Below, piece by piece: positions 209-41,862 of a stretch of 50,109 nucleotides of DNA; position 1 is the stretch's first letter, and each line of letters starts with the position of its first letter. The notes under the pieces are model-generated. The model made no database searches, was not told the DNA's origin, and was given only the letters and a program-made list of their open reading frames with translations. The stretch is from Shigella phage pSf-2. Location of the stretch: the sequence record KP085586; one strand, 5' to 3'. The position numbers and the translations under genes are program-made.

Positions 209-616
209 ATGCTTCTTCTTTTAGATCTGTTCAGGTTCTGCGAAGGTTACGACAAATACACTCGTCAGCACATAGCGAAATTTATATACGCCCACAAGGA
301 AAGTGAGCGATTTGCTAAGGCCGCCGGGATGACTCACCGTGAATTTACAAGCGCGCTATCTAAGGAGTTTTGCGCTCGTTGCGTTACTGATGGTTACTTG
401 GATCGTAAGGATGGATTTTACTGGTGCAAGGGAAAGATCAAGCGCCCGGTAATGATGAAGCTGATGTGTATTGATGGCTACAACAATCGATATACGTGGG
501 AAATGATGCATATTGGAGAAATGAGTGATGAGGAATTGTTTGGCGAACGTAGAAACGTTGATAGATCGGAACGTCGAATTGTGCGCAAGACTCCAGCTTA
601 CGAAAGAAGAATTTGA
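209..616 (+). CDS. hypothetical protein (3' part doubtful)
   Basis: 135-codon ORF; C-terminal 30 aa low complexity and overlapped by 528..728 in another frame. Confidence 0.3.
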   Translation: MLLLLDLFRFCEGYDKYTRQHIAKFIYAHKESERFAKAAGMTHREFTSALSKEFCARCVTDGYLDRKDGFYWCKGKIKRPVMMKLMCIDGYNNRYTWEMMHIGEMSDEELFGERRNVDRSERRIVRKTPAYERRI

Positions 617-728: not shown

Positions 729-731
729 GAA

Positions 732-754
732 AGGAGGCTAAGCCTCCTTTTTTT
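732..754. terminator. Rho-independent terminator (hairpin aggaggc-taa-gcctcct plus T8), between convergent genes
   Basis: 7-bp GC stem, 3-nt loop, T-run on + strand; stop of minus-strand spanin gene lies in the stem. Confidence 0.6.
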
Positions 755-1142
755 CGCCCTTACGAATTGAAAAATAAACCAGCAACAGACCAATGAGAAC
801 GAGGGTCCAACCAACTATAGGATCATACCAGTTTCCGGGCTTAGTCACAGTGATGCTTTCAGCGTTAACCGTGTTGGCCTGAATGGTTGACACTTCAATT
901 GACTTCTTCACGGAAGAGTCAACCTTTCCTACATTGGACTTTTCAACTTTAACATCTCGCTTATCTTCGGATTTTGCGGTTACTCCTGCTAATTGCTTTG
1001 TGTTCTCCTCCCCAATCTGTGCTGTAACTTCAGGCTTAGATCCTATTAAACCGCTCAGGGCAGATGCCGTCGAGCAACCTGATAGAGAAATAACACCAAC
1101 AGACACTACAATCGCAACGCACTTTTTCTTCAGTTTCATCAT
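738..1142 (-). CDS. unimolecular spanin-like lysis protein (OM lipoprotein with C-terminal TM anchor)
   Basis: N-terminal lipobox LSGC after signal peptide, C-terminal hydrophobic helix [13 protein letters not shown]; directly downstream of endolysin; architecture as in T1 u-spanin. Confidence 0.65.
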
Positions 1143-1627
1143 AATTCCTTAACGCAATACGCGTATTCTTCAGCGCGTCTGTTCTTGAGTCCTCTAGACA
1201 CTTCGCGCTTTTTGGTTTTTGGGTTGTAGTAGTATACCCATCGCCATAACTGATTGCACGCTTCCCTGTGCTTACCCTGATTTATTAGCTTAAGCATTGT
1301 AGAAGATCCGAACGCGCCAGTACCAACGTTGAAAGTAAAGCTATACAATGACGCGCGCATCGTTACAGGAATATCAACATTCACCTTTTTGTCTACGTAT
1401 CTCTGAGCAACGCCGATGTGTTTTATCAACAAAGCATCGCATTCTCGCTTAGTGTATTTCTTACCAGGTATGACGTCCGGCCCGGTTATTCCGCTGCATA
1501 CGGTAGGGACTCCGGCGATATCGTAATAAACCTCGTATTCTACACCTTCGATTCGTTCCAGTAGGGTAGGCGTCAACGTCAAAGCTGCCCCGATCGATGC
1601 GCCTATAACGTTATTTTTTAAACTCAT
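1139..1627 (-). CDS. endolysin, GH24 phage lysozyme (possible SAR type)
   Basis: Catalytic E-x8-D-x5-T pattern ([22 protein letters not shown]); hydrophobic N-terminus; ATGA overlap with spanin gene. Confidence 0.8.
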
Positions 1628-1842
1628 TATCTCCTCCTGATCTTAAGCGCCTTATTTAGATCGCCATCGTTTAACGCTTCCTGAATTGCCTTGCTATCGC
1701 GATACTTCCAGTACGCTCCCCAAGCGCCAAAAAGCAGAAAGCAAATGAATGTAGCGCCAGCAATATAAAGTTGACCTGTCGCCGCCCCCACCAACGAAGC
1801 ACCGCCCGTGCTTGACGTAGCTGCTGTTAAAAATTCTTTCAT
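1627..1842 (-). CDS. holin (start moved to internal ATG)
   Basis: 71 aa, one strong TM segment, charged C-terminus KALKIRRR; ggtgag SD 5 nt before ATG 1842; track start 1869 is TTG. Confidence 0.55.
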
Positions 1843-1979
1843 AATCTCACCATATATTTTTTTGAACAAGTGAGTCGATTTTAACCTTCAAATTTACTTG
1901 ATACAACGCAAAAAGGCCAGCATGTAAATCATGCCAGCCTGTAAGGTGATGAATGATATTGTTAATCTATCTCAATAAA

Positions 1980-2138
1980 TTACAGGTAGTAACCATTCAG
2001 AGGTGCTTGGATTACTGAGCCTCTACCGTCGTAAATCTCAAACAATCCCCAACCGAAATCATAACCAACACTATAGATCTGATTTACGCGGAATGGAAGT
2101 GTTTTGGAGTTATTTCGGATGCACTTAACTCGTTTCAT
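1980..2138 (-). CDS. hypothetical small protein (52 aa, not in ORF track)
   Basis: aaagagg SD before ATG 2138; sits 57 nt downstream of motif copy 2196..2213 with tatagt box. Confidence 0.35.
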   Translation of the reverse strand: MKRVKCIRNNSKTLPFRVNQIYSVGYDFGWGLFEIYDGRGSVIQAPLNGYYL

Positions 2139-2195: not shown

Positions 2196-2213
2196 TTTAT
2201 CAATTAGTGCGAT
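2196..2213 (-). promoter_or_regulatory. degenerate copy of 18-bp dyad motif (tttatcaattagtgcgat on + strand)
   Basis: 15/18 match to tttagcaattcgtgctat; tatagt 22 nt downstream on minus strand. Confidence 0.4.
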
Positions 2214-3355
2214 CCTGTCATTTCTGGACGGTAGATGAATCGACCTATCTCACCAAATTGCTTGTCGTAAACGATTACCGCCGCCTGACGATATGAGCGC
2301 CACCCGCCGCGCGCGGCGTATGCATCCTTCGCTCCTAACTGACCGTGAACCTCATCGATACCTAACGAGTGTTCAGTGATTGTCTGATGATGCCAGTGAC
2401 CGCTATGAGTATACACATACTTGCTCTCTCCGAAGTCTGCACGGAAGTCTGCCGCCATCGCTGCAAGTCGCGTGTCTGCCTTTTTCATAGTGTGCCCGTG
2501 AGTGTATCCCAATAAGGTGTTTCCCCATCGAGTCTTATGCAGAATCATAGGGCTAACGTCAACGAATACTCGCGGCTCGTCTTCATAATATGCCGACATT
2601 GCAGCACGTAGCCAAATCATCCCGGCCTGGTCGTGGTTCCCTTCAATAATCTGAACCTCGACTTCTTTGTGTTTCATAAGCATTTTGTCGATAGCGCGAC
2701 GCACAGAACGGATCGCAACATGCACCAATTTTGCGTATCGTGAATCCTGATCCAGAACGTGACCGCTTGCCGGGGTAACAGCATCAAGACCGTCCGAGTG
2801 AAGGAAGTCACCGCCAATTAACAGAACAGCCTTCTCTGCGTTAGGGGCAATATCGATCGCGTAATTGAAGAAGTCGCCAAGCACTTTTTCAGCTACGTCG
2901 GTAGAGTAGTTCTCTCCGCATTCATGCTTGTGAGCAAGCGCACCAATATGAAGATCGAATACCGGATAGAGTGCCAGCTTACCAATCTCTGTCGTAAGCC
3001 CTTGCGAGGTTAGTAGCTCGGTTGGCTTTGCTCGCGGCAGGTCTTCACAGAATGCAATACGCGCCGCTTCCATCATTGCCGCAATCTTCTCACGGTCCTG
3101 ATCGGTTTTTACCCAGCGCACTACCTCGGTCCCATCGCCGCGAATCATCGTCGACGTGCCTTTTACCATGAATCCCTCTGGCACGTTTTTAGCAACATGC
3201 TCGTTACCGTGAAAATGACCTTCTTTTGCCAGCTTTGCATGGCGCGCTTCAACAGTGCGAATGTGCATACCGTATTTTTCCGCGATTTCGCGAAGTGTTA
3301 GGCCGCTCATGCGCTCTTCAATAAGTTGCTCGGTGGTGATTTTAGCTTGTGACAT
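2204..3355 (-). CDS. HTH domain fused to calcineurin-like metallophosphoesterase
   Basis: N-terminal HTH (LTLREIAEKYGMHIRTV); phosphoesterase motifs FDLHIG, GGDFLHSDG, EGNHD, GYTHGH, HSGHWHH. Confidence 0.75.
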   Translation of the reverse strand: MSQAKITTEQLIEERMSGLTLREIAEKYGMHIRTVEARHAKLAKEGHFHGNEHVAKNVPEGFMVKGTSTMIRGDGTEVVRWVKTDQDREKIAAMMEAARIAFCEDLPRAKPTELLTSQGLTTEIGKLALYPVFDLHIGALAHKHECGENYSTDVAEKVLGDFFNYAIDIAPNAEKAVLLIGGDFLHSDGLDAVTPASGHVLDQDSRYAKLVHVAIRSVRRAIDKMLMKHKEVEVQIIEGNHDQAGMIWLRAAMSAYYEDEPRVFVDVSPMILHKTRWGNTLLGYTHGHTMKKADTRLAAMAADFRADFGESKYVYTHSGHWHHQTITEHSLGIDEVHGQLGAKDAYAARGGWRSYRQAAVIVYDKQFGEIGRFIYRPEMTGSH

Positions 3356-13886: not shown

Positions 13887-14117
13887 ATGAAAAAGTTAAT
13901 CACCATTATCACCGCTGCATTCATCCTGACTGGTTGTGCTCAGAATCTTAAAAATGGCGACTGCGTTACTTACGCGTACGGCTCTTGCATGATGCGATTC
14001 GTTGATGGTAAAAAGGTTCCGGCTGGCGAAATTGACATGCGATTCAAAGGTCTGTCATCCGACGACGATCAGGGTAACTTTAGCGGCAAGGTATCAATCA
14101 AAACTAAAGAGTGGTAA
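13887..14117 (+). CDS. small lipoprotein, Cor-like superinfection-exclusion candidate
   Basis: Signal peptide with lipobox LTGC; 76 aa; lies next to J gene on opposite strand as cor does in FhuA-dependent phages. Confidence 0.55.
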   Translation: MKKLITIITAAFILTGCAQNLKNGDCVTYAYGSCMMRFVDGKKVPAGEIDMRFKGLSSDDDQGNFSGKVSIKTKEW

Positions 14118-41581: not shown

Positions 41582-41752
41582 CTATTCGCAAGTAATTTCA
41601 TTTGATGTGATTGGTAGCAATACGTTGCCGACCATCATGAACGTAGTAACCTGGTTTCCGGTTTCATGGCATCGCTCTTTTACCTCTCCACAACCGGACA
41701 CCACAAGGATAGCCAGGGCGACCGCCGCCATCATGCAAATAAGAATACGCAT
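41582..41752 (-). CDS. small lipoprotein candidate (start moved to internal ATG)
   Basis: Signal peptide with lipobox VVSGC; track start 41773 is GTG; TGATG coupling with upstream small ORF. Confidence 0.4.
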   Translation of the reverse strand: MRILICMMAAVALAILVVSGCGEVKERCHETGNQVTTFMMVGNVLLPITSNEITCE

Positions 41753-41862
41753 CATTCGAACGCTCCAGCACACAGTAGTAACATGATTACGATCCCGTCA
41801 ATGGCATGACCCATGCAGAAGAACCAGACGGCAGACCATAAGGCAATTGTATTGAAGTTCAT
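41752..41862 (-). CDS. small hydrophobic protein (36 aa, not in ORF track)
   Basis: gaggtg SD, ATGA overlap with upstream gene; hydrophobic LWSAVWFFCMG...IVIMLLLCAGA. Confidence 0.3.
   Translation of the reverse strand: MNFNTIALWSAVWFFCMGHAIDGIVIMLLLCAGAFE

Follow-up and report, generated by a model that had tools for sequence, protein, structure and literature searches.

The three minus-strand genes between positions 738 and 1842 of the Shigella phage pSf-2 sequence very probably constitute a late lysis cassette of the pinholin, SAR endolysin and u-spanin type, as annotated in phage T1. The window analysed is the whole stretch of DNA in record KP085586 (50,109 nt), which to judge by its sequence is a complete Tunavirus genome, that is, the genome of a T1-like siphophage of Escherichia and Shigella. 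A three-gene lysis cassette had been predicted at 738-1842, and all three open reading frames were recovered at exactly these coordinates from the six-frame ORF list and the raw sequence. They lie on the minus strand and are read from 1842 to 738, a strand assignment absent from the original prediction. The features of the region are the following:

730..750, minus strand: terminator-like hairpin covering the spanin stop codon (9 pairs, 5 of them GC; T-rich tail)
738..1139, minus strand: putative u-spanin gene, 133 aa (134 aa from the ATG at 1142)
1139..1627, minus strand: endolysin (lysozyme) gene, 162 aa
1627..1842, minus strand: holin gene, 71 aa, ATG at 1842 and stop at 1627
1914..1940, minus strand: terminator-like hairpin upstream of the holin gene (11 pairs, 6 of them GC; TTTTTG tail)
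1980..2138, minus strand: DUF7244 (SH3-clan) gene (PF23896, E = 5.2e-23; 88% identical to T1 orf14)

Cassette layout and relationship to phage T1

The closest relatives of the cassette are found among the T1-like phages. Between positions 600 and 2000 the DNA shares 98.9% identity with Shigella phage phiL, 98.0% with Shfl1 and 89% with T1, bearing out the T1-like assignment made previously, and phiL, ISF002 and Shfl1, all Tunavirus in the family Drexlerviridae, align over the entire first 25 kb of the window at approximately 93% identity. BLASTP comparison with the curated T1 record (AY216660) matched the holin to gp13 (70/71 residues identical, 99%; E = 5e-51), the endolysin to gp12 (157/162, 97%; E = 3e-122) and the third protein to gp11 (104/133, 78%, with no gaps; E = 2e-77), which are annotated in T1 as a class 2 pinholin, a SAR endolysin and a u-spanin, respectively. 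Gene order and flanking terminators are likewise the same as in AY216660, and the three cassette genes are the orthologues, in this order, of T1 genes 13, 12 and 11. Profile searches gave a compatible picture, with PHROGs assigning the first protein to the holin family phrog_2877 (E = 1.7e-38), the second to the endolysin family phrog_7 (E = 1.8e-51) and the third protein to phrog_1804, Rz-like spanin (E = 4e-45), while Pfam recognised only the lysozyme among the three (PF00959, E = 8.8e-34). One difference from T1 was seen nearby, where the HNH endonuclease gene that T1 carries between its exonuclease and DUF7244 genes is absent from both pSf-2 and phiL.

The genes are tightly packed, with a 1-nt overlap at each of the two junctions (TAATG and TGATG) that suggests translational coupling. 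The sequence GGTGAG precedes the holin ATG at 1842; an upstream in-frame TTG at 1869 was considered as an antiholin start and rejected, as no SD-like sequence stands before it. At the start of the spanin gene, an additional ATG in frame at 1142-1140 would lengthen the protein by one Met. T1 has the second ATG only (ATAATGAAA, versus ATGATGAAA in pSf-2), and we therefore take 1139 as the conserved start. Neither a two-component spanin nor an embedded Rz1-like reading frame was found among the cassette ORFs. The only other overlapping ORFs on the same strand, 686-814 and 1671-1802, were discarded, being short and out of frame, with no supporting evidence found for either.

Both flanks of the cassette carry terminator-like hairpins. 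The upstream one (1914-1940), which stands between the cassette and the DUF7244 gene, has the same sequence in T1 and phiL, and the T1 record lists it as a terminator. The downstream one (730-750) reads AAAGGAGGCTAAGCCTCCTTTTTTTT on the plus strand and occupies the place of an annotated rho-independent terminator in T1. Since it forms a hairpin followed by a T-run on both strands, it probably also ends the convergent plus-strand gene at 209-616. A sigma-70 promoter scan from the upstream terminator to the holin gene returned no minus-strand match.

The cassette is already known, in that nearly identical genes have been described in T1 and Shfl1. Most close relatives label these genes "hypothetical protein" or "Rz-like spanin", and the value of the comparison lies in annotation: the genes can be named as a predicted pinholin, a predicted SAR endolysin and a u-spanin. 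The result confirms the placement in Tunavirus and raises no new biological question.

The third protein and the T1 gp11 family

The third gene had been predicted to encode a single protein combining an outer-membrane lipoprotein signal with a C-terminal transmembrane helix, the u-spanin architecture defined for T1 gp11, and each element of that description is present. In its 133-aa form the protein divides into a predicted signal peptide (residues 1-21), the lipobox cysteine (Cys22), a periplasmic domain (23-106), a transmembrane domain (TMD; 107-125) and a basic tail (126-133) with the sequence RKGEKKEA. The n-region MKLKKK contains four K/R and is followed by a 14-residue hydrophobic core and then by LSGC, which with Cys22 matches a PROSITE PS51257-type pattern. 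The TMD has a mean Kyte-Doolittle hydropathy (KD) of 2.20. The periplasmic segment spans 84 residues with a net charge of 0 and no Cys, the only cysteines of the protein being Cys22 and one within the signal peptide, at position 7.

The residues following the lipobox cysteine bear on where the lipoprotein would be sorted. In the Lol pathway, Asp at position +2 acts as an avoidance signal, and its absence leads to sorting of lipoproteins to the outer membrane. Position +2 is Ser in the pSf-2 protein and +3 is Thr, so outer-membrane sorting is expected.

We gauged how often the pairing of a lipobox with a C-terminal TMD occurs by applying a crude filter for both features to all ORFs of 60 aa or more in the six frames (167 in total), and one ORF other than the spanin gene passed. 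That ORF is implausible, as it needs an internal Met to pass and is without a PHROG match; the pairing is thus not a background feature of the sequence.

Less can be said from structure prediction and profile databases. No match was obtained with Pfam or NCBIfam, and a sequence search of the PDB returned nothing at E values up to 1. A single-sequence AlphaFold2 model (mean pLDDT 56) placed helices at residues 4-20 and 107-130, the latter with a pLDDT of 70-87, and fell below a pLDDT of 50 over most of residues 19-88, where no strands were assigned. The hallmark expected of the periplasmic domain in the T1gp11 family is a short helix ahead of four or more beta strands. Alternating runs of hydrophobic and polar residues are visible in the periplasmic sequence. 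For the Shfl1 u-spanin, Jpred predicts 5 helical and 26 extended residues among the 85 of the periplasmic domain (PMC6139136).

Homologues of the protein were found by tblastn in 1146 phage records. For a family comparison we selected ten members with 32-78% identity to the pSf-2 protein, drawn from Drexlerviridae (Tunavirus, Hanrivervirus, Tlsvirus, Braunvirinae and Webervirus) and from Autographiviridae (T7-like phages of Klebsiella, Pectobacterium and Pantoea). The Gly-Cys of the lipobox is invariant in all ten, position +2 is Ser or Ala in every member, and periplasmic Cys is lacking throughout. In 10/10 members the C-terminus also carries a hydrophobic window (KD 1.67-2.97) with basic residues behind it, with no conservation of the segment sequence itself. 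The same defining features were given for the T1gp11 family by Kongari et al. 2018 (PMC6139136). With 78% identity to T1 gp11 over 133/133 residues and 96% to the Shfl1 homologue, the pSf-2 protein belongs to this family, whose members are grouped at ≥40% identity over ≥40% of length (PMC6139136). The u-spanins of Shfl1 and phiL are at least 96% identical to the pSf-2 protein, and that of Shfl1 is tabulated in a published spanin database as a 133-aa u-spanin (PMC6139136). The position of the gene at the end of the holin-endolysin cassette is shared with T1, JLBYU41, slyngel, CF1, 2725-N35 and RAD2.

T1 gp11 is the prototype u-spanin, and gene 11 complements the lysis defect of lambda RzRz1 in a lipobox-dependent manner; the wild-type lipobox is LSGC, a replacement by AWAC is functional, and an AWAS variant was tested in parallel (PMC6139136). 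We infer the pSf-2 third protein to be a u-spanin by orthology to T1 gp11. The two proteins share a length of 133 aa, the LSGC lipobox with Cys22, Ser at +2, a TMD at 107-125, a tail of the form RKxEKKEA and the lack of periplasmic Cys, and both are encoded by the last gene of the cassette with a 1-nt overlap with the endolysin stop. They differ at 29/133 positions, including 17/84 in the periplasmic domain and 7/19 in the TMD. The pSf-2 TMD is without Cys110 (VVCWILVF in T1, IVGWTLVL in pSf-2) and is less hydrophobic (KD 2.20 versus 2.97), and the pSf-2 gene has the extra upstream ATG noted above.

Inhibitory internal translation products have reportedly been described in the J Virol 2018 paper on T1 gp11. 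No inner in-frame ATG, GTG or TTG preceded by an SD-like sequence was found in the spanin gene of either pSf-2 or T1.

Like lambda Rz/Rz1, the pSf-2 protein would link the inner and outer membranes and disrupt the outer membrane once the murein has been degraded. It differs from the lambda pair in being one polypeptide rather than two and in lacking both sequence similarity and periplasmic Cys; furthermore, the periplasmic domain of the T1gp11 type is predicted to be beta-rich (Jpred for Shfl1) and not coiled-coil. To the question of how u-spanins disrupt the outer membrane, the pSf-2 orthologue offers no access beyond that already given by T1 gp11.

An envelope lipoprotein encoded by a phage could in principle serve another purpose, such as Cor-like superinfection exclusion or a membrane tether. 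The third protein matches no Pfam or NCBIfam model and has no solved structure, and the window encodes other small non-lysis lipoproteins, for example at 13887-14117, which has a weak Cor match. We nevertheless regard such a role as extremely improbable, given the full-length identity to a protein with demonstrated RzRz1 complementation, the retention of lipobox and C-terminal TMD down to 32% identity, and the location of the gene at the end of a lysis cassette, translationally coupled to the endolysin.

Holin topology and the endolysin N-terminus

The 71-aa holin opens with a 42-residue uncharged stretch (residues 4-45) that could hold two helices. Its second half is a clear TMD (residues 25-45, KD 1.53; best 19-residue window 1.81 at 25-43), whereas the first is weak (residues 4-24, KD 0.63) and rich in small residues, with G/A/S/T at 16/21 positions. 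A basic C-terminal tail follows, containing 8 K/R against 4 D/E. Pfam returned only a sub-threshold match to DUF3262 and NCBIfam no usable match. Accounts of the T1 orthologue are at odds on topology: the note in AY216660 gives one TMD, N-out and C-in, whereas the T1 holin has elsewhere been described as a class II holin with two TMDs (PMC11447400). We found no hole-size data for T1 gp13. The designation pinholin is a prediction for both the pSf-2 holin and T1 gp13, and is a reasonable one in view of the pairing with a SAR-type endolysin encoded by an overlapping gene.

Seven Drexlerviridae holins of 51-99% identity all share, without change, G13, G14, G19, T22 and G23 in the weak segment and F38, G39, G42 and A43 in the TMD. 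It is conceivable, although doubtful, that segment 4-24, the weakly hydrophobic and best-conserved part of the holin, is a releasable glycine-zipper helix of SAR type that gates the pinholes. If so, T1-type holins would be a second, sequence-unrelated example of the dynamic topology of phage 21 S21 68. The two holins resemble one another in length (about 70 aa), in their SAR endolysin partner, and in having a G/A/S/T-rich first segment, a more hydrophobic TMD after it and a C-terminus that is basic. They differ in that sequence homology of S21 68 to the pSf-2 holin is not demonstrated and the number of TMDs of the T1 type is disputed.

The second gene had been predicted to encode a lysozyme whose hydrophobic N-terminus may act as a signal-anchor-release domain. 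The lysozyme identity is secure from the PF00959 match and the near-identity to T1 gp12, and the N-terminal composition is indeed SAR-like; release from the membrane stands as a prediction. The catalytic triad is E27-x8-D36-x5-T42. Ahead of it, residues 5-23 form a 19-residue uncharged stretch that lacks Cys, averages a KD of 1.13 and has G/A/S/T at 9/19 positions; a single basic residue (K4) precedes it. SAR domains are defined by weak hydrophobicity and enrichment in G/A/S/T, typically with 2-3 basic residues in front (PMC9239132). The pSf-2 N-terminus thus fits the predicted SAR type in all but the number of preceding basic residues. An uncharged N-terminal stretch of 15-19 residues before the catalytic Glu was kept in every Drexlerviridae endolysin examined.

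The best PDB matches of the endolysin were 3hde, 3hdf and 4zpu (RrrD), with E values of 1e-33 to 1e-34 (best phmmer E = 1.6e-34), and the alignment starts at residue 11, inside the N-terminal segment. The first two presumably represent the SAR endolysin of phage 21 in its inactive (3HDE) and active (3HDF) states. With R21 and DLP12 RrrD the pSf-2 enzyme shares the PF00959 fold, the E-x8-D-x5-T arrangement and a weakly hydrophobic, Cys-free segment before the catalytic Glu; it differs from R21 in being a homologue and not an orthologue, and in its single basic residue before the SAR-like segment. The first Cys is C44, residues 1-43 being free of it, in contrast to P1 Lyz with its SAR-domain Cys. 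Because the segment lacks Cys, refolding control of the phage 21 R type would be expected rather than the disulfide switch of P1 Lyz.

The same measurements can be read differently, as a canonical large-hole pathway in which a class III-like holin with a single TMD acts together with a lysozyme whose N-terminus is not a releasable SAR anchor but an ordinary signal, cleaved or uncleaved, or part of the fold. Only one holin segment reaches conventional TMD hydropathy, in keeping with the one-TMD note in the curated T1 record, the N-terminal stretch of the endolysin contains no 19-residue window with a KD of 1.6 or above, and for T1 gp12 a SAR function is a prediction. The definitive assay asks whether depolarisation or a pinholin frees the enzyme from the inner membrane (PMC9239132), and T1 Gp12 is itself referred to as "a predicted SAR endolysin" (PMC11447400). 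Set against this, low hydropathy with abundant G/A/S/T is what distinguishes SAR domains, the sequence alignment to the solved phage 21 enzyme extends into the N-terminal segment, that segment stays uncharged across the Drexlerviridae endolysins examined, and AY216660, despite its one-TMD note, still names a pinholin and a SAR endolysin. In addition, T1gp11-family spanins surveyed previously all occur in pinholin/SAR-endolysin cassettes, with the exceptions of J8-65 and Limezero (PMC6139136). On balance we consider the large-hole pathway quite unlikely and favour the pinholin and SAR endolysin combination.

Proposed lysis pathway and the adjacent DUF7244 gene

Gene identity, order, motifs and orthology are established by the sequence, and from them we infer the following pathway, including release of the SAR endolysin, the small size of the holes and fusion of the membranes. 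The holin would build up in the inner membrane until it triggers at a set time and depolarises the membrane, probably via small pinholes. Meanwhile the lysozyme would be exported by Sec and held inactive, tethered to the inner membrane through its SAR segment; depolarisation would then free it into the periplasm, where it would refold and cleave the peptidoglycan. The u-spanin would be lipoylated at Cys22 with removal of its signal peptide, its N-terminus moving to the outer membrane, as expected with Ser at +2, and its C-terminal helix staying in the inner membrane. With its ends in two membranes, the single chain would have to pass through the murein. After murein degradation it would cluster and collapse, fusing or disrupting both membranes and freeing the progeny.

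The gene on the far side of the upstream hairpin raises the question of whether the module extends to a fourth member. A DUF7244/SH3 protein was proposed as an accessory fourth lysis-module gene product in KanT1 and T1 on the basis of co-localisation, in a 2026 paper that reports the order exonuclease-SH3-holin-endolysin-spanin as conserved in 39/42 Tunavirus genomes (PMC13164509). By extension to pSf-2, the SH3-like protein might modulate the endolysin and be weakened here by a premature stop. Codon 53 of the pSf-2 gene is TAA in place of GAA, a change unique to pSf-2 among nine sequences (GAA in 8/8 relatives), and the nonsense codon shortens the protein to 52 aa from 58, with loss of the last six residues. 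The strong profile match (E = 5e-23), the conserved gene order and the singular nonsense codon are compatible with a four-gene module. We think it unlikely, as the proposal is based on co-localisation only, the protein is without a signal sequence, a conserved terminator hairpin parts its gene from the holin gene, and the gene is present in only 188/522 Drexlerviridae (PMC13164509). The pinholin, SAR endolysin and u-spanin cassette of three genes is therefore the reading we retain. As for the truncation itself, the shortened DUF7244 protein still matches positions 1-51 of the 57-position profile.

Spanin start and holin N-terminal segment

The spanin gene opens with two tandem in-frame ATG codons (ATGATGAAA; 1137-1142, minus strand), a pair shared with the Shigella phage phiL, whereas T1 has only the second (ATAATGAAA). 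The mature lipoprotein would be identical from either start once the signal peptide is cleaved.

1780-1833, minus strand: holin residues 4-24, its N-terminal segment, which is weakly hydrophobic

This segment is the most conserved part of the protein among seven Drexlerviridae holins (51-99% identity), with G13, G14, G19, T22 and G23 invariant in all seven; published annotations conflict over its status as a transmembrane helix.

Genes and signals flanking the lysis cassette

On its two sides, the cassette is bordered by the following features.

209-616, plus strand: convergent gene, phrog_2794, whose T1 annotation is HTH-domain protein
729-755, both strands: hairpin set between an A-run and a T-run, terminator-like in either direction
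1980-2138, minus strand: DUF7244/SH3-like gene adjoining the cassette, with a nonsense codon at 1980-1982
2204-3355, minus strand: SbcD-like exonuclease gene, directly next to the DUF7244 gene

The hairpin lies between the convergent gene and the spanin gene, overlaps the last spanin codons and stop, and reads as a terminator on the plus and minus strands alike. The DUF7244/SH3-like protein has 52 rather than 58 residues, six codons being lost through a GAA to TAA substitution at a site where GAA is kept in all eight relatives compared (T1, phiL, Shfl1 and five more). The early stop could be a genuine truncated allele or a sequencing error. Between the exonuclease and DUF7244 genes T1 carries an HNH homing-endonuclease gene (3040-3666 in L001, the T1 sequence compared), which is missing from the window at 2139-2203. 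The same direct arrangement is found in phiL, and has also been reported for KanT1 (PMC13164509).

Small lipoprotein candidates outside the cassette

13887-14117, plus strand: 76-aa ORF whose lipoprotein signal, MKKLITIITAAFILTGC, is clean
41582-41773, minus strand: 63-aa ORF with lipobox …VALAILVVSGC

The first hits phrog_4281, a family of unknown function, at E 6e-37; its match to phrog_1119, the Cor superinfection-exclusion family, is weak (E 3e-5). The other, a candidate second small lipoprotein with no relation to the lysis cassette, hits phrog_8628 at E 9e-30, also a family of unknown function.
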